A stretch of 28,572 bases of DNA from a virus (lineage: Duplodnaviria; Caudoviricetes): positions 1-28,572 of IMG/VR virus record IMGVR_UViG_3300033129_000617; one strand, 5' to 3'. The position numbers and the translations under genes are program-made. Below the pieces are notes generated by a model. That model made no database searches, had not been told where the DNA came from, and saw only the letters and a program-made list of their open reading frames with translations. Of this stretch, positions 3,967-27,596 are shown piece by piece. Numbering within the stretch: the stretch's first letter is position 1; each line of letters starts with the position of its first letter.

Positions 3967-5113
3967 ATACCCCTTTATTTTTCTCTGATAGTTTCTCCAT
4001 GCAAATATAGCGCAAAGCATCTAGGCTATGATTTGCAAAATCTACAGGCTCATCATCAGGATCTCCTGTTTTTTTTACTTTCCATTTATACTGCCTCAGC
4101 TCTTTAATGGTGTTAATGCTCCTCTTAGTTACTAGGAGCTTAAATCTTTTTACTATATCTATCCCTGCATTTACTGATCCCTGAGGTTTATGAGCTCCTT
4201 TAATCCTCCAGCCTAAATTCCTGAGCTCCTGTATAGCCATAGGGTTAGAGCTATCTGCTACTATTACCTCAGTTTTAGGTACTGATGAGGCAGTAAATAA
4301 TGCAGATAATTGAGTAGCAGTTTTATCAGTTAAATATAGCAGCTCATCTACTACTATATCCTCATTAAATTTGTAGATAGCTACTAATGCAGAGGGATCT
4401 GCAGAAAATCCAAAATCTAGCCCATAGCCTAAAAGCTGAGCATTAGGAGGTATCTCATCTATAGTTACCCAATTCCTGTAAATCAGCCCCTCCAGCTTTC
4501 CTGTAAATCCCCTAGCATTGATTTTCCATAGGTTAAAATCTTTATCCTTTAGAGCCTCTAGTTTTTCTCTAATGCTGTTATCTACAAAAGGGTTATGTCT
4601 ATGATCAGATATGATTAACTCTACTTCAGGCTCTCCTATTAAATGCTCATGCACCCAAAATTCAGCAGTAGGATTATAATCCATAAATACCTGCTTGGTA
4701 GATCGCCAATAAACCTCATTAAATACATCCTCCCTAATACCATTTACCTCATTAAAAAATGCGTAATCTCTTTTACCACTTTTGGCATCCTGAGCATTTT
4801 CATAACTTTTAAACTCTATAAATGAGCCATTGGTAAAATAGTATATCCTATCTGAGGCATTGAATTTATCTATATGCCTAGCGAAAAATGGAGTATCATT
4901 AATGATATTACCTAGATCCCTCATGGCTCCTACCTTTAAATTAGGTATATCCTGCCCTACTATGGTTATCCTATTTCTCTGCTCTATAGCCCTGATGCAT
5001 AAAACTTGCAGGATGCTATAGGTTTTCCCTGAGCTAGAGCCTCCCTGATTTACCACTATCTTAGCTCTGCTGTTGTAATTAGCATAGAAAACTGATGATA
5101 CCTGTAAATCCAT
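3953..5113 (-). CDS. terL: Terminase large subunit (PBSX/SPP1-like)
   Basis: Walker A QGGSSSGKT, Walker B AFFNE, DYNP motif III, and nuclease motifs GLDFGFSADP and DFANHSLDALRY. Confidence 0.95.
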   Translation of the reverse strand: MDLQVSSVFYANYNSRAKIVVNQGGSSSGKTYSILQVLCIRAIEQRNRITIVGQDIPNLKVGAMRDLGNIINDTPFFARHIDKFNASDRIYYFTNGSFIEFKSYENAQDAKSGKRDYAFFNEVNGIREDVFNEVYWRSTKQVFMDYNPTAEFWVHEHLIGEPEVELIISDHRHNPFVDNSIREKLEALKDKDFNLWKINARGFTGKLEGLIYRNWVTIDEIPPNAQLLGYGLDFGFSADPSALVAIYKFNEDIVVDELLYLTDKTATQLSALFTASSVPKTEVIVADSSNPMAIQELRNLGWRIKGAHKPQGSVNAGIDIVKRFKLLVTKRSINTIKELRQYKWKVKKTGDPDDEPVDFANHSLDALRYICMEKLSEKNKGVYVIR

Positions 5114-5607
5114 TAGGATAGATCTATATCTGCCTCTGATCTAGGTAAAGCTGGAGCTGGCAGTACGTTAATATTAATGCCTGTTATCGTGCTGTTATTT
5201 TCAATTATCTGCCTCTCATTTAATCCATGATGCACCTTTAAATCAAAGATTAAGCCTGTAGTATTTCCATCTCCATTTATCAGAGCATCCATTTTCTCAT
5301 TAAAGAAAAAATCATTTATCTCTGATACTATCCCATGATACTCTTTATAGGCATCCTCTTTACCATAGTTGAGCCATGTTTGAGAGGTTATTTTTAGATA
5401 GCTGAAAAATCCTCCTTTATTAGGTACTCTAGGTTTATTTACTTTTAGGATCATTCCGCTATTAGTAGGATGATCTATGCAGTAACATTTGCAATAGTTT
5501 ATATAATCCCAAAATCCCTTAACAATATCCTCAGGCTGGAGCTTCTTTCCTTTCTTAGTTAGGTAGCCTCCGTTTGCGTGTAAATAAATAATCTCTGCCT
5601 TTTCCAT
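5113..5607 (-). CDS. terS: Terminase small subunit (DNA-packaging gp3-like)
   Basis: Directly upstream of terL with a TAATG overlap. Pattern 'FWDYINYC...KPRVP..GGF..YL.I...TW.NY...IFDLK'. Confidence 0.8.
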   Translation of the reverse strand: MEKAEIIYLHANGGYLTKKGKKLQPEDIVKGFWDYINYCKCYCIDHPTNSGMILKVNKPRVPNKGGFFSYLKITSQTWLNYGKEDAYKEYHGIVSEINDFFFNEKMDALINGDGNTTGLIFDLKVHHGLNERQIIENNSTITGININVLPAPALPRSEADIDLS

Positions 5608-5613
5608 TTCCTA

Positions 5614-6616: not shown

Positions 6617-6849
6617 AGTTTTACTTCTAAAATTAATACAAAGATAAGGGATAGAGCTCCTACTCCTGCAGCCATTAATACAGATAGAGGAGAGATACCA
6701 TAGTAGGCTAATGTATATGCTACTCCTACCCAAAATGATAAACATACTGAGCAGGTAAAAGGCTTAAATTTTAGCACCTTAGGGAGGATAGTATAGCCTA
6801 CTAATACATATCCTAGAGATGCTGCTAATAAACTGATAATTAAATACAT
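6610..6849 (-). CDS. Small membrane protein with a CxxCxSFW motif (DUF1360-like)
   Basis: Hydrophobic segments flank 'KPFTCSVCLSFW'. Confidence 0.6.
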   Translation of the reverse strand: MYLIISLLAASLGYVLVGYTILPKVLKFKPFTCSVCLSFWVGVAYTLAYYGISPLSVLMAAGVGALSLIFVLILEVKLW

Positions 6850-7343
6850 ACTTTAAATTTAGTTTTTAGTTTTATCTTAATTGCATTTAAACTATTATAG
6901 ATACTCCTACGTGGGATATTGGTTAATCTATGTAGCTCTGATACATTCTGCCCCATCTCTAAATACTTTGCTAATAGCTTTCTCTCATAGTTCGTAAATA
7001 GCTCACTATTTAGGGCATCTACTACCTGAGGATAGAGTATATCAATCTCATGGTTATAAACATCTGCCTGAGGTAAATCAGTTTCTTTAATCTCTACTAC
7101 AATATCATAGAGCCTATACTTTTTACCTACTGCCCCTGTTTTACTCATCATATTAGATAAGCTCCTAACTGCCCAAAATTTAAAATATTTAGCAGCATGG
7201 AGGGCATCTAGCTCAGGCTCAGATTTAGAGCAGATCATTAGCATAAACTCCTGCCATAGATCCTCCCCCATAGAGCCTCCAATTTTATGAGCTATCTCCT
7301 GATACTCCTCATTATCTATCAGATGAGCTATTAGTTTATGCAT
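6840..7343 (-). CDS. ECF-like RNA polymerase sigma factor (candidate late transcription factor)
   Basis: Region-2-like 'EDLWQEFML....FKFWAVRSLSN' and region-4 HTH 'ERKLL..Y....NVSELHRLTNIPRRSIYNSL'. Sits before the packaging genes. Confidence 0.75.
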   Translation of the reverse strand: MHKLIAHLIDNEEYQEIAHKIGGSMGEDLWQEFMLMICSKSEPELDALHAAKYFKFWAVRSLSNMMSKTGAVGKKYRLYDIVVEIKETDLPQADVYNHEIDILYPQVVDALNSELFTNYERKLLAKYLEMGQNVSELHRLTNIPRRSIYNSLNAIKIKLKTKFKVCI

Positions 7344-10336: not shown

Positions 10337-10567
10337 TTATTTTTTAAATTTGTTTTTAAAATACTCAGAGCCATAGGCTAGATCAGATGCCCCATTTCCA
10401 TAATTAAAAGCCTCTATGATCTGCTCCTTCTCCATTGCTTTGGCTTTCTCTAGAGCATCTATAGGTAAATGGAAAATAATGGTATCAGGCTTATCTGCCC
10501 ATTTGCATCTAGTTCCATCTATAAACTGATCCATTAACCATTGAACAGCTGTATTTTCTTGTTTCAT
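10337..10567 (-). CDS. Small protein of the 'MKQ..TAV.W...AKAMEKEQII.A' family, copy 2
   Basis: Paralogous to 10564..10767. Confidence 0.8.
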   Translation of the reverse strand: MKQENTAVQWLMDQFIDGTRCKWADKPDTIIFHLPIDALEKAKAMEKEQIIEAFNYGNGASDLAYGSEYFKNKFKK

Positions 10568-10767
10568 TTGCCGTAAATTTCGTTGTAGTATGTTTCTCCG
10601 TCATCTTTTATTTCATCACAATTAGGATCATAATAATAAGCATCTATTATCTGTTCCTTCTCCATTGCTTTGGCTTCTTTATATGCTTCTAACATATCAT
10701 TACCAATAAAGTATTGCATTCTTTCAAGTTCACTAAAGAACCACTCTACTGCTGTTTGTTGTTTCAT
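10564..10767 (-). CDS. Small protein of the 'MKQ..TAV.W...AKAMEKEQII.A' family, copy 1
   Basis: Paralogous to 10337..10567, with atypical codon usage. Confidence 0.8.
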   Translation of the reverse strand: MKQQTAVEWFFSELERMQYFIGNDMLEAYKEAKAMEKEQIIDAYYYDPNCDEIKDDGETYYNEIYGK

Positions 10768-12654: not shown

Positions 12655-13404
12655 TTATTTTTTCTGAGCTAAAATATCTAGAGCTTCCTGCTGTTTACTT
12701 TTTAACGATTTTTTAGAGGTCGCTTTATTCTTGATCTCTGAGAGTTTTCTGCAGTAGTTAGCAAAATGCCTCAGGATCTCCTGATACTTTGCATAGGTAG
12801 AGCCCTGTAGCCTTGCATGGTTAATAAATTCCTCCCTAGCTAGAGCATAATCCTCTGAGCTTATTCCAGCATTCATGCAGTAGGTTTCTAGATGCATCTG
12901 ATCCTCTGCAAACTGCTCTAAAAGTTTCTCTGTTAATCCCTTAATATCATCATAATAATATTTAGTATTTACTTCTTTACCTATATATAAGGAGTGCCTA
13001 TGCATTTTTTGTATAGGCATTTGTTGAGGCACTTGTATAGGCATAGCATTTTGCTCCTGCATTTTTTGCATAGGCAAATGAGTAGGCAAATGAGTAGGCT
13101 CTGATGGGATGCCCAGCTTGATCTCTACCTGCATAGTCCTATACTGATTTTTAGCCTCAGAGATGATGGAAATAAATGAGGCATTTTTAAGCCTTTCTAG
13201 GCTCTTGTAAATCGTTCTAGTATCTACGCCTATTATTTGGCTTATCTCCTCGCTATAAAGAGATAAATGCCCTCTACTGCGATTTAAATTGTAAAGATGG
13301 GAGATATAAAAAGCTACTGCAAAATCTATAGGCTTAGCTCCTACGTTTGGCAGATAATCAAAGATCCATCTGCTGATACTATAGCCATCATATTTTTTAC
13401 TCAT
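12655..13404 (-). CDS. Replication initiator (lambda O-like architecture)
   Basis: N-terminal winged HTH (EEISQIIGVDTRTIYKSLERLKNASFI), a repetitive central linker encoded by DNA repeats, and a helical C-terminal domain. Confidence 0.75.
   Translation of the reverse strand: MSKKYDGYSISRWIFDYLPNVGAKPIDFAVAFYISHLYNLNRSRGHLSLYSEEISQIIGVDTRTIYKSLERLKNASFISIISEAKNQYRTMQVEIKLGIPSEPTHLPTHLPMQKMQEQNAMPIQVPQQMPIQKMHRHSLYIGKEVNTKYYYDDIKGLTEKLLEQFAEDQMHLETYCMNAGISSEDYALAREEFINHARLQGSTYAKYQEILRHFANYCRKLSEIKNKATSKKSLKSKQQEALDILAQKK
12961..13100. repeat. Putative replication origin: iteron-like repeats plus an AT-rich flank inside the initiator gene
   Basis: AGGC(A) cores at 13015, 13027, 13039 and at 13072, 13084, 13096 (12-bp period). 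TGCATTTTTTGYATAGGCA at 13001 and 13058. Inverted TGCCTA at 12995. Confidence 0.65.
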
Positions 13405-13420
13405 GGTTTTAGGTTTTAGG

Positions 13421-13428
13421 CAAAGATA
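13421..13428 (-). promoter_or_regulatory. -7 promoter element TATCTTTG for the initiator gene
   Basis: TAnnTTTG followed by (TAAAACC)2 and ATG. Confidence 0.65.
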
Positions 13429-13460
13429 AAAAAGCTCCCCTATCAGGAGAGCCTTTTTTT
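13428..13460 (-). terminator. Intrinsic terminator, possibly bidirectional
   Basis: GCTCTCCT-GAT-AGGGGAGC then T6 on the minus strand. T7 on the plus side. Confidence 0.75.
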
Positions 13461-13677
13461 ACTTTTGGAGATTATTTAGCTTTTCCTTTAGCAGCATAGT
13501 TAGCTCTAGGCTGATCTGAAGATTATCCTCAGCATTGATTTTAAATGGCTGTTTATGGTAGTATTTATCCATGAATAGCTGCAGCATCTTTTCTATCTGT
13601 AGTTTATGCTTAGGATCATTCGCTGGATGAGATACTATCCTATCTAGTTTCTGATAATCTTTAATAATGCCCATCAT
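13459..13677 (-). CDS. Hypothetical protein (72 aa)
   Basis: ATGA overlap with the upstream gene. Confidence 0.65.
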   Translation of the reverse strand: MMGIIKDYQKLDRIVSHPANDPKHKLQIEKMLQLFMDKYYHKQPFKINAEDNLQISLELTMLLKEKLNNLQK

Positions 13678-14141
13678 AACAAACTAATTTTAACTGATGT
13701 GGTAGAGTATTTTTTAGGAGGATAGATCTCATAGCTCTCCCCTGTTTCAGGATGGATAACTGCTGTAGGCTTGGTAATAGTTTTTAGCATTTTCTCTCTC
13801 TCCTTAAATAGTTTTTCTAGCTCCTGCTGCTTTTCTAATAGTTCCTGATAGTATAGATCTTTGCAGCTCTCATAATCATATCTACTCCCTACCTCTGCTA
13901 TGCTGAATTTAGCACCATGCAGGCAATCACCAGCTTTACCATACTTCTCAGCCTCAGCCAATGCATAAAAATCTATCTCTTTTATAGCCTTAGCTAATGC
14001 CTCCTGCAGGATCTTAGCCTTAATTTTTACCTCCAATGGGTTAGCTCCTCCCTCATCTACTGCATTAATGATAGCTGATGAGATGAGATCTGCAGAGGCT
14101 TTACCATTAAGCCCCTGCATGATAGTTAATAAATTATCCAT
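13674..14141 (-). CDS. Hypothetical recombination-module protein (155 aa)
   Basis: Follows ERF. Coiled coil with '.YDY..C.D', 'EREK.LK' and 'ETGE' motifs. Confidence 0.6.
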   Translation of the reverse strand: MDNLLTIMQGLNGKASADLISSAIINAVDEGGANPLEVKIKAKILQEALAKAIKEIDFYALAEAEKYGKAGDCLHGAKFSIAEVGSRYDYESCKDLYYQELLEKQQELEKLFKEREKMLKTITKPTAVIHPETGESYEIYPPKKYSTTSVKISLL

Positions 14142-14784
14142 TAATATCTTCCTTTACTTTATTCCACTTTTTAGCCTGCTCATCTGAGAGCATATAGTTA
14201 TTAAATAAATAGCTCTCTATTTTAGCTCTCTCTGCTGCTGCTCCTGCTTCCTGATATCTAACTATAGCTCTAATAAATAGCTCCTCTGATACTTGCTCTA
14301 ATACTTTCTCCTGAGCTTTCTCTACAGGCTTAGCTGCTACAGGCTCAGGCTTACTATATACAGGCTTAGCCTCAGGTTTTTTAGGAGCTGCTTTATCATG
14401 CTGATTAGTAGCATCTGCATCCTTATTATCATCAATCAGTAGCAGAGCATTTAGGGCATACTTTCTAGCATAGCTGGATGCTGCTCCTGTAATCTGAGAT
14501 CCATCCATGCCCTTTTTATTCTCCTCCTCCCTAGCAAATGAGGTAGAAAAGATAGTATCTATCCCATCAGTATAGATAGCAGTAGCTTTAATATAGTACC
14601 TCTCCCCTATTAGCATGATCTCATCCTGCAGATAGAGAGAGATGCCCTCAGGTAGCAGAGGTTTTACACCCTCTACTATATCCTCACAGGATCTGTAGCT
14701 ATAGCCTCCAAACTTATTAAACTGATTTTTAGGAGCTTTTAATTTTACCTGTAGCTCTCTCAGGCTTTTTACCAATTTTTCCAT
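14134..14784 (-). CDS. erf: ERF-family single-strand annealing protein
   Basis: 'LKAPKNQFNKFG.Y.YRSCEDI.E.VKPLL' and 'KGMD.SQITGAASSYARKYAL......D..KDADA'. Confidence 0.92.
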   Translation of the reverse strand: MEKLVKSLRELQVKLKAPKNQFNKFGGYSYRSCEDIVEGVKPLLPEGISLYLQDEIMLIGERYYIKATAIYTDGIDTIFSTSFAREEENKKGMDGSQITGAASSYARKYALNALLLIDDNKDADATNQHDKAAPKKPEAKPVYSKPEPVAAKPVEKAQEKVLEQVSEELFIRAIVRYQEAGAAAERAKIESYLFNNYMLSDEQAKKWNKVKEDING

Positions 14785-14804
14785 ATTGTTTAGGTTTTAC
14801 TTGA

Positions 14805-14817
14805 CAAATATAACCGC
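14805..14817 (-). promoter_or_regulatory. -7 promoter element GCGGT-TATATTTG
   Basis: TAnnTTTG upstream of the TAAAACCTAAACAATATG start of erf. Confidence 0.65.
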
Positions 14818-15616: not shown

Positions 15617-16217
15617 TGATTTTATTTTTTAAGTTTTTTAAAATTTTGATTACTCCTACTAAATCAGATGGATAATTATGGATAGTATTTTTTAGCATAT
15701 TCTGTACCCTAGTTTGAATACCTAGATTTTCAATAGCTAGGTTATTTCTATTCCCATCCTTAAAGTAAACTATGTAGCCCTTAGGGATAGCTCCATGATG
15801 CAGCTCATAGATATAGGTATGCTTTTTAATGTACTTACCATTTGTTTTGATATAGGTATATCCATCTTTATCTACCCTCTCTGATCCATCAGGTTTAAAG
15901 TTTGGAGGCATAGTACCTTTTTTAAACATGGTTTTCTTTACCTTAGCATATACCTCTGCAGGCATTTTCTTTCCTTTGTTAAATGGCTCATGATCTTTAG
16001 AAAATCTATGAGCCTGCCCTGATGATTTTAATCTATCAGCCTGCCTCTGCAGTTCCATCTCTCTAAATGCTGGATCTTTTTTAATCCCTCTAGTAAAAGC
16101 TACATTATAAACACAACTCTCAGAGATAGATAAATGCTGAGCTATATCTTTTGCATATTGGTAGGGATAGTTTTTAATGATATACTCTACTTTATCCAAT
16201 GGGATCCTTTTGCTCAT
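15597..16217 (-). CDS. HNH-family endonuclease-like protein (start revised to MSKRIP at 16217)
   Basis: 'F.K...PFNKG' and 'FKKG..P.N' repeats, then 'H.YIYE..HG.IPKG..V.FKDGN..N..IENL'. ATGA overlap. Confidence 0.85.
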   Translation of the reverse strand: MSKRIPLDKVEYIIKNYPYQYAKDIAQHLSISESCVYNVAFTRGIKKDPAFREMELQRQADRLKSSGQAHRFSKDHEPFNKGKKMPAEVYAKVKKTMFKKGTMPPNFKPDGSERVDKDGYTYIKTNGKYIKKHTYIYELHHGAIPKGYIVYFKDGNRNNLAIENLGIQTRVQNMLKNTIHNYPSDLVGVIKILKNLKNKINAKEQN

Positions 16218-16429
16218 TCCTCTCCCTCCTGTAGCATCTCCTTGAATAGATGGAAAAATAGAGTAACTAGCACCCATACAAAAGCTAGAAAAGCCAGCAA
16301 TAAAATTGCTTTACCATTCCATGCAGATAGATCATAGCAATCTGCAGTAAATCCCATCAGCAGATAAATAGCTGCAGGGAGAGAGATGAGATAAAATGCC
16401 CATCTCAAAAATCCTTTTAAGTTTTTCAT
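16214..16429 (-). CDS. Early 2-TM membrane protein (71 aa)
   Basis: Two hydrophobic helices. Start context AAACAATATGAAAAAC. Confidence 0.75.
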   Translation of the reverse strand: MKNLKGFLRWAFYLISLPAAIYLLMGFTADCYDLSAWNGKAILLLAFLAFVWVLVTLFFHLFKEMLQEGEE

Positions 16430-16459
16430 ATTGTTTAAAGTTTAAAGGTTTCTACTTAA

Positions 16460-16711: not shown

Positions 16712-16741
16712 CAAATTTAATACCTTTTTTGTCATTGTCAA
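16712..16741 (-). promoter_or_regulatory. Main early promoter TTG-N19-TAAATTTG
   Basis: Matches the Bacteroidota -33/-7 consensus and spacing. Preceded by a long T-rich tract and two terminators. Confidence 0.85.
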
Positions 16742-16802: not shown

Positions 16803-16827
16803 ATAAACATTTTTTTTCTTAATAAAT

Positions 16828-16890
16828 AAAAAAGCCCCTGCAATTAAGCAGAGGCTCTATAAAACCTAAAGCCTACTATGAAAAGGCAGT
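16828..16890 (-). ncRNA. Candidate antisense sRNA-1 (about 60-65 nt) ending in an intrinsic terminator
   Basis: ACUGCCUUUUCAUAGUAGGCUUUAGGUUUUAU-AGAGCCUCUGC-UUAAUU-GCAGGGGCUUUUUU. It has its own -7 element directly upstream, and its 5' part is complementary to early-gene leaders. Confidence 0.6.
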
Positions 16891-16891
16891 A

Positions 16892-16899
16892 CAAAGATA
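16892..16899 (-). promoter_or_regulatory. -7 element TATCTTTG upstream of candidate sRNA-1
   Basis: TAnnTTTG directly after the TAG of the last late gene, with no minus-strand ORF before the terminator. No clear -33. Confidence 0.55.
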
Positions 16900-22116: not shown

Positions 22117-22468
22117 AATATGTTACATTATCTGCATAGCTACTAAATGCAGTATCATTATATAAATGCTCTGCTAGCCCTGCCTCTAATACCTTTACTA
22201 AATTACTATCATTAATATCTACTGCTACTCCATCAGATAAAAACACGCTGTATCTATACTGCCCATCCTTTAGAGCTGGAGCTGTAAAACTAAATCTATT
22301 AAATCTCTCAGGGTTAGGGCTCTGATCATTTCCTAAATCTATGAAATAGGAGGTATTAGTAGCAATATGCAGTAAAGATAAATAATAATAGGGAGTAGCT
22401 ATATCAATAGCCTCATCTCCTATAGTTATCAAAATGATATTCTCTATATCCTTAGTTAAATAAATCAT
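22100..22468 (-). CDS. Hypothetical structural-module protein (122 aa)
   Basis: Beta-rich ORF overlapping the portal start. Confidence 0.65.
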   Translation of the reverse strand: MIYLTKDIENIILITIGDEAIDIATPYYYLSLLHIATNTSYFIDLGNDQSPNPERFNRFSFTAPALKDGQYRYSVFLSDGVAVDINDSNLVKVLEAGLAEHLYNDTAFSSYADNVTYYEPNI

Positions 22469-22506
22469 CTATCTATAAATAGAGATAGCCTCAAAAATGA
22501 GCAAAT

Positions 22507-22564
22507 AAAAAGCCCCTGCTAATGCAGGAGCTCAAAACAATATGAAAAACGGAAAAGGTATTTA
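22507..22564 (-). ncRNA. Candidate antisense sRNA-2 / 3'UTR element with an intrinsic terminator
   Basis: UAAAUACCUUUUCCGUUUUUCAUAUUGUUUUG-AGCUCCUGC-AUUA-GCAGGGGCU-UUUU. Sixteen nt are an exact complement of the start region of gene 16214..16429. The terminator is solid, the ncRNA call is tentative. Confidence 0.55.
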
Positions 22565-23080
22565 TTAACTTAGCAATCCTGCTACTACTCCTGAGCTGAT
22601 GCTATATGCTTCCTCAGGCTCTTCTGATGAGATAGTTAGGTTATAGCCATTCATATCTCCCATAGCTGTACCCGTTACTGCAGTTTTAGTAGAGATCTCA
22701 CAAAGGTTCTCTTTACCAATAAACCAAAAATCATTATTTTGGGTTTGCACAATGCAGTAAAAGCGGCTGCCTGCCAAAAGTTTTAGCTCATTTCTAGTTG
22801 CAGTATCTTGTTTATGTAAAACTACAGTAACCTCAGTAGTAGTAAAGCGAGTACCATTAGCTCTAGAGCCTGTAGTAGTTTCTGTTACCTGAGATAATCC
22901 CTTAGGTAGATCATACTTAAAAAATAATTTGTCTGCAGCTAAAGTAATAGCAGAAATAGCTCCTGCTGATGCAGTCATGCTACTGATGCTATCTCCATCT
23001 CCTACATAGATAGCTTTAATACCACCTACGTTATCACGGCAAACTGATAGGGCTCTGCCTGTTGTTAATGCACAACTCAT
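22565..23080 (-). CDS. Major tail (tube) protein
   Basis: 'MSC.LT.GR...C.D.VGGIK.IY', 'NGT.F', 'GTA.GD.NGY.LT...EE'. Follows the capsid gene. Confidence 0.7.
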   Translation of the reverse strand: MSCALTTGRALSVCRDNVGGIKAIYVGDGDSISSMTASAGAISAITLAADKLFFKYDLPKGLSQVTETTTGSRANGTRFTTTEVTVVLHKQDTATRNELKLLAGSRFYCIVQTQNNDFWFIGKENLCEISTKTAVTGTAMGDMNGYNLTISSEEPEEAYSISSGVVAGLLS

Positions 23081-23100: not shown

Positions 23101-23133
23101 AAAAAGGAGCAGAGGATGTTACTCCCCTGCTCT
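23101..23133 (-). terminator. Intrinsic terminator after the major capsid gene
   Basis: GAGCAGGGGA-GTAACA-TCCTCTGCTC then CTTTTT. Confidence 0.8.
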
Positions 23134-27581: not shown

Positions 27582-27596
27582 ATCTATAAATATAAA

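Follow-up and report, generated by a model that had tools for sequence, protein, structure and literature searches.

A candidate start-codon-pairing RNA element behind a tail-tube-like gene in a probable Bacteroidota phage

FopS (RF04319)/GibS RNAs of Bacteroides thetaiotaomicron block translation by pairing at start codons; FopS binds RbpB, FopS-10 acts on susC, and FopS-14 is described as 3′-derived (PMC11697453). Among phage RNAs, c4 RNA (P1/P7) and sar RNA (P22) pair with the initiation region of the phage's own mRNA, block translation, and control one antirepressor in temperate enterobacterial phages; the self-targeting phage RNAs in the same review mostly concern single genes in temperate phages of Proteobacteria (PMC12197685). 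To these systems we compare E2, a candidate small RNA of ~63 nt (positions 22502..22564, minus strand; fold z −3.08) made up of a predicted 31-nt single-stranded leader and an intrinsic terminator. It lies in the 28,572-nt phage record IMGVR_UViG_3300033129_000617, the whole of which was analyzed and is called the window below. A further class for comparison, the 3′UTR-derived bacterial sRNAs, shares the terminator of the parent mRNA.

E2 resembles FopS/GibS in its single-stranded 5′ segment with a Rho-independent terminator after it, its length (~65 nt in FopS), its UUUUCAUA seed mirroring the start codon, and its membership in a set of paralogous copies, here E2 and E1 (PMC11697453). Matches to the FopS R1 seed number 13/17 positions in the window, 14/17 in L004, and 16/17 in L003, and on these counts homology and convergence are indistinguishable. 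Unlike FopS, E2 lacks the 3′-extended seed R1′, its terminator following directly after the seed, and the canonical TAnnTTTG promoter of most FopS members is absent at E2 (5/5 clade members) although present at E1. The E2 seed also appears tuned to phage starts, with a second anti-AUG register for the terminase small-subunit gene (terS), and the phage is not of gut type. With the FopS covariance model (threshold, 56 bits), E2 gave no match at E ≤ 10 and E1 scored 15.9 bits; across Rfam, no family reached its gathering score in the window, and the 20 weak matches at E ≤ 10 were unrelated. By its sequence, E2 is thus FopS-like in design but outside the FopS model. The likeness may be convergent, both RNAs mirroring one style of start.

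The c4 and sar RNAs share with E2 the principle of a phage RNA directed at the phage's own initiation regions, by prediction in the case of E2. They control a single gene, whereas E2 is predicted to act on several unlinked starts, those of a membrane protein, Erf, and TerS, and family searches of the window proteins matched no integrase, repressor, or antirepressor family. Like 3′UTR-derived sRNAs, E2 has its leader right behind a stop codon and a terminator, 31 nt past that codon, shared with the upstream and probably abundant tube mRNA; it differs in that loci homologous to E2 carry an internal promoter box. The nearest annotated phages, Nonlabens phages P12024S/L (Inhavirus), have a similar gene order, a tube-like gene 30 to 31% identical, and a portal 27% identical, but in them a convergent gene comes after the tube 3′ leader, which lacks a CAT seed. 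No self-targeting anti-start RNA in Bacteroidota phages was found in the literature searched (subscription papers lay outside it). The known role of FopS is that of a host regulator; if true, a multi-target RNA directed at the starts of a phage's own early and packaging genes would be a new form of infection timing in Bacteroidota.

Genome setting and promoters

The window is 98% complete, and its minus strand carries nearly all of the genes. Identified proteins comprise the portal, the terminase subunits, Erf, the tape measure, and a protease. We infer a Bacteroidota host; of ten genome matches to the large terminase, nine belong to Sphingobacteriales or Chitinophagales (48 to 57% and 36% identity). 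The capsid protein had no relatives among the genomes or annotated phages searched.

TAnnTTTG is the Bacteroidota sigma-A −7 consensus, and flavobacterial sigma-A motifs are described as variations around it (PMC9723704). Minus-strand occurrences of TAnnTTTG lie 8 to 70 nt before a start in 7 of 20 cases, against 10% expected. A promoter-like site, TTG-N19-TAAATTTG (16712..16741, minus), stands upstream of early genes 16672 and 16429, and the same TTG-N19-TAnnTTTG spacing can be read in the relatives L002 and L040. Boxes of the form TAnnTTTA/T occur 12 to 14 nt before the ATG at minus-strand positions 27594, 18766, 7639, 6861, and 3140; being near the ATG of several structural or late genes, they suggest near-leaderless late mRNAs. 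Gene 6840-7343 has weak sigma-70 matches (E 0.0006 to 0.008).

Anatomy of E2 and its paralogue

The parent gene of E2 (22565..23080, minus; phrog_19091) encodes 171 aa and is tail-tube-like by weak fold matches, many of them to tube chains (best E 0.004, none at E ≤ 0.001). The U-rich leader (22564-22534) begins at the tube stop codon and is predicted to be unpaired, with a mean unpaired probability of 0.6 in a 300-nt context. The terminator (22502..22533, minus) consists of a 10-bp stem (22533-22510) and a U-rich tail. Within the leader, a 3′ seed (22535..22550, minus) can pair with two gene starts, over 16 nt at gene 16429 and over 15 bp with one G:U at erf, and an overlapping 5′ seed (22545..22558, minus) is complementary to the terS start (14 bp with three G:U). 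An imperfect −7 promoter box, TACCTTTT, lies at 22553..22560 (minus) and is the same in all four close relatives. RNA-library contigs from related strains lie on both flanks of E2 in X1 and X2 (one study); none spans 22466-22658 in either, and X3 has no contig there, but contigs cannot show RNA ends. The three RNA runs contained 0.07 to 0.17 of the words, as contigs.

The initial annotation had called E2 the second of two related elements, and this holds: E1 (16824..16899, minus) aligns with E2 in the seed core and in the terminator, which in E1 occupies 16858-16831. The E1 seed faces TAAAACCTAAA leaders. E1 has a perfect −7 box at 16899-16892, with a predicted start near 16887; a G stands five nucleotides further on, as in FopS-type copies, and the box overlies the end of the upstream gene. 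Because of this box, E1 is probably a stand-alone gene rather than a 3′UTR-derived RNA. In relatives (L002 and L040) E1 follows a different gene. Where the E1 anti-start UUCAU is replaced by CUCAU in relatives, the homologues of 16672 and 9318 open with ATGAG in place of ATGAA. A motif scan for E1 returned 2 loci. Compared with the relatives, E1 and E2 in the window have their 5′ terminator arms interchanged (22510-22533 and 16831-16858; L002 3126-3190), and the capsid terminator (23107-23132) has arms like those of E1 and E2 in reversed order.

The 16-nt match and the predicted targets

The exact reverse complementarity reported between plus 22535-22550 and 16421-16436 was confirmed, as were the pairing over the erf start (15 bp, one G:U) and the lack of an upstream TAAAACCTAAA at gene 16429. 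With a 2×2 loop, the pairing with gene 16429 extends to 22 bp over 16413-16436. In a listing of inverted repeats, the length of this match proved ordinary by itself (2 exact 16-mers and 29 repeats of at least 14 nt in the genome), and what stood out was that it lands on a start. Among 40 fourth-order Markov genomes, 92.5% contain at least one inverted 16-mer (mean, 2.75). The 31-nt leader was therefore compared through 1,000 dinucleotide shuffles against 47 curated starts; the E2 leader had been picked post hoc among a handful of terminator leaders, at a cost of a factor of a few on the following counts. A 16-nt helix on a curated start arose in 0/1,000 shuffles, the top-three energy was reached in 0/1,000, the top-three helix sum in 1/1,000, and the best single energy in 5/1,000. 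None of 715 non-start ATG windows pairs over more than 9 nt with the leader. Random sets of such windows gave a weaker result, matching the best energy in 302/5,000 and the top-three energy in 120/5,000. Of 101 genomes from a single Bacteroidota order, 3 carry the exact 16-mer, each time opening an open reading frame of 59 to 503 aa, and it is therefore not a generic start consensus there. A 16-nt match from the E2 leader onto a start codon is not ordinary, although such a match is ordinary genome-wide.

The first predicted target is the start of gene 16214-16429 (paired region 16413..16436, minus; rank 1/47), the second gene after the early promoter, which encodes 71 aa with two hydrophobic stretches. 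The erf start (gene 14134-14784, PF04404; paired region 14777..14791, minus) and, for the long forms, the terS start (gene 5113-5607, phrog_606; paired region 5598..5611, minus) follow at ranks 2 to 3 of 47; erf has its own −7 box at 14812. By full folding, 16429, erf, and terS are the top three of 47 starts for both the 63-nt form and a 183-nt form that includes 120 nt of coding sequence. The three energies for the 63-nt form are −21.5, −17.1, and −16.8 kcal/mol, against a median of −7.5 kcal/mol over the 47 starts. For a 49-nt form, 16429 and erf remain the top two of 47, in that order, but terS falls outside the top seven. When the whole sense strand was scanned for plain duplexes, an internal coding site at 1933-1972 came first (−25.4), followed by 16429 (−24.5) and terS (−21.3), with erf tenth among the 15 sites listed.

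Close relatives

Four contigs at 85 to 87% protein identity retain E2. The 14 nt past the tube stop are identical in the window and all four, compared with agreement at 282/398 fourfold sites (P about 0.008). An A/G change in E2 lies opposite the U of the terS AUG, where either letter pairs. L209 and L210 retain the terS start, with which the relatives' E2 pairs over 14 to 16 bp. By these sequence comparisons, the terS start, whose seed the initial annotation had not mentioned, is the best conserved of the predicted targets. An E2 motif scan returned 42 loci, a terminator following only in the four close relatives, and a metagenome scan returned 46 loci, none above 45% identity.

The 3′ seed mirrors AAACAAT-ATG in the window and CTAAAACT-ATG in the relatives. 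When elements and starts were exchanged, window gene 16429 paired at −24.1 with the window E2 and at −11.3 to −16.7 with the relatives' E2, and window erf at −16.9 and −13.1, respectively. The relatives' erf paired at −10.4 to −13.3 with its own E2 against −8.0 with that of the window, and three early starts of L040 paired at −14.3 to −20.7 with the sister-clade E2 against −4.9 to −11.3 with the window E2. For terS, cognate pairing reached −21.3 against −19.0 to −20.1 in the window and −20.3 to −23.9 against −17.8 in L209, with cognate and swapped values equal in L210. These sister-clade pairings cross contigs, none of which holds E2 together with terS or with the three L040 starts. The only relative with both E2 and early genes, L129, shows modest pairing (−7.9 to −10.5; starts scored were those of the first gene, the g16429 homologue, erf, and the 9318 homologue). 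Co-variation is seen in part: cognate exceeds swapped pairing for the early targets, but the early-seed change is one event between two lineages, and L129 is modest.

Distant homologues

An alignment-based scan of tube homologues, from 11 of 64 collection parts, gave the best 80 among 592, and 62 viral loci chosen to span distinct leaders were tallied and placed in a quick tree. In 21/62 loci a TAnnTTYG box stands no more than 26 nt from the tube stop, 19 of these loci falling in one 20-row branch (SH-aLRT 90); box and CAT occur together in 17/62, and 30/62 have neither. In that tree the window clade had no clear sister. As read from sequence, distant phages can have at the same spot a promoter box and a terminator, in most cases with an anti-start seed; the majority of distant tube homologues are without this design.

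In G014 the tube element pairs at 15/16 nt with the start of a DnaB-like gene, and it is also a mirror of the AAACCTCA leaders on early genes of this phage; G015 and G016 (85% and 61% complete) share the element without the matching leaders, a point against tight co-evolution. In G017, a second element (L446 2941-3030; promoter, seed, and terminator) has a seed mirroring ACACA-ATG early starts and fits 5/62 of the genome's starts, while the tube element fits none. By an anchored score over eight genome sets, with the relative set pooled from three contigs and G001 and G006 selected by seed pattern, own starts were best for 6/9 elements, or 5/7 without the window's two; the exceptions were window E1, the G017 tube element, and G001. 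Elements of the R1 type from other phages have high scores on many genomes.

A seed-plus-U-run scan returned 121 viral loci, 51 with a FopS-type 5′ end, many of these behind a −7 box. The FopS paper notes a FopS sequence in one phage, as possible dissemination only (PMC11697453). Among 13 other records examined, seed and hairpin lie 0 to 29 nt behind a gene in G001, G003, G005, G008, and L287 and behind their own −7 box in G004, G006, and G009; the seed is also the reverse of an open reading frame start in G005, G010, and L246. FopS-like seeds with a terminator follow holin-like or lipoprotein-like genes at L345 8506 (G001), L287 1423, and L359 (G005), 130 to 180 nt before the next gene, an E1-like position. 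In the L363-L424 group, a fold is predicted in which the seed behind the tube gene reaches across the terminator onto the AUG of the following gene. In two subclades UUCAU/CUCAU goes with ATGAA/ATGAG at this gene, and the seed may act in cis on read-through RNA. A scan of 338 locus strands for start-matching terminator leaders found the window elements and 3 further loci, under a rule that was too strict (146 terminators; known relatives missed). A pattern of promoter, seed, and U-run gave no sign of a host family in 41 Bacteroidota genomes (6 matches versus 5 in the control) or in three genomes (7 matches versus 11 in the control).

Proposed mechanism and alternatives

We think it somewhat probable that the phage encodes in E2 a small RNA that works by base pairing, or an RNA 3′ end with that function, and that it lowers translation of gene 16429, erf, and terS. 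Bacteroidota mRNAs lack a Shine-Dalgarno sequence, and their initiation is tuned by structure and upstream adenines (PMC6847099). Since such starts need to be unstructured, a duplex of 14 to 22 bp over the AUG would be expected to block initiation. By analogy with FopS on susC, the E2 leader would cover the AUGs of 16429, erf, and terS and so reduce their translation. The RNA would most likely come from the 3′ end of the capsid/tail-tube transcript and accumulate late; this origin is favored on two grounds, the imperfect state of the ancestral −7 box here and the retention of the terS seed by the long form only. Late E2 RNA could then curb the early membrane protein along with the recombinase and keep terminase at a low level, while E1, from its own promoter, would cover the TAAAACCTAAA-led genes. 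The initial annotation had proposed a late RNA switching off early translation: the anti-start design directed at the phage's own genes stands, but terS is a late-module gene, and E2 is therefore not a pure early-off switch. More tentatively, and with real doubt, the tail-tube position in small Bacteroidota phages could be an RNA slot re-tuned to each phage's own starts, the promoter here having been lost and a two-seed 3′-end RNA serving as a protein-free lytic timer. If true, the structural transcript itself would shut off early recombination and membrane genes and meter terminase.

Host mRNAs may be additional targets of E2, a reading opened by the likeness of its seed to that of FopS/GibS and absent from the initial annotation. 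That a FopS-like RNA acts mainly on them, such as on transporters of the SusC/TonB type, for example to close a receptor or free ribosomes, with the phage matches a by-product of host-style starts, seems to us unlikely, though it is compatible with action on the phage's own genes. Its appeal lies in the seed, a FopS-type 5′ end at 13/17 positions and 16/17 in L003, in the susC starts that FopS targets (PMC11697453), in the single element common to G014, G015, and G016 despite differing early leaders, and in the high scores of other phages' R1-type elements on many genomes. Yet the window seed deviates from R1 exactly where its own targets do, and the exact 16-mer occurs in only 3/101 genomes of one Bacteroidota order. 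A less probable reading is that nothing regulatory pairs at all, a U-rich spacer before a terminator fitting A-rich starts by composition, with the CAT incidental. A 16-nt inverted match is indeed expected somewhere in the genome, the energy-only tests against non-start ATG windows are weak, and wherever a gene start comes after a terminator the opposite strand looks like an anti-start with its terminator, for which reason plus 13394-13464 scores 24.5 bits on the FopS model. Composition-preserving shuffles nevertheless fail to reproduce the pairing (0 to 5 in 1,000), the leader is conserved with changes that keep or re-tune pairing, the design recurs in the paralogue and in distant positional homologues, and the strand opposite E2 has no gene start.

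A perfect TAnnTTTG box stands at the TACCTTTT position in distant homologues and E1 has a perfect box, so that an internal promoter is a live alternative to the 3′-end origin, and conservation of TACCTTTT could reflect a promoter. In its full form, this alternative makes E2 a stand-alone sRNA of ~49 nt, transcribed from the degenerate box by the host main sigma factor, that damps 16429 and erf early and continuously; an RNA starting at the box loses the terS seed, leaving terS untouched. The box counts among tube loci (21/62, 19 in one 20-row branch), the E1 box, the top two ranks of the 49-nt form, and the variation of flavobacterial motifs around TAnnTTTG all fit it. We nonetheless hold it to be quite improbable: the box lacks its last G, ending in T, in 5/5 clade members; TTG is not at the usual distance, none lying 15 to 23 nt upstream in four relatives and the window having one at 13 nt only; and the box stands 7 to 8 nt from CAT, against 11 to 12 nt in E1 and FopS-type copies. 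Hardly credible is a local role, as a tiny plus-strand gene (22542-22568, 8 codons), a remnant of an opposite gene, or a cis hairpin hiding the AUG of the next gene. The plus strand does read as a typical start, and in the G014 clade a fold of the seed onto the AUG of the following gene is predicted. In the window, the start of the following gene (22468) scores −4.5, outside the top seven of 47 partners. The mini-open reading frame itself was rejected, a 1-nt indel breaking its frame in 3/4 close relatives.

Other features of the window

The segment at plus 13394-13464 reads as the replication-gene start in reverse together with a bidirectional terminator. It may be a cis-antisense RNA, or it may just exemplify the origin of such elements by inversion. 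Contigs L040 (near 7740) and L001 (near 4050) jump to the opposite strand of another genome part, and these strand switches are probably assembly artefacts. A 48-nt direct repeat (90%) at 10399-10446 and 10629-10676 lies in two small adjoining genes. Related-strain contigs show joints and loose ends at this repeat, and the region 10399-10676 is suggested to be a variable cassette.
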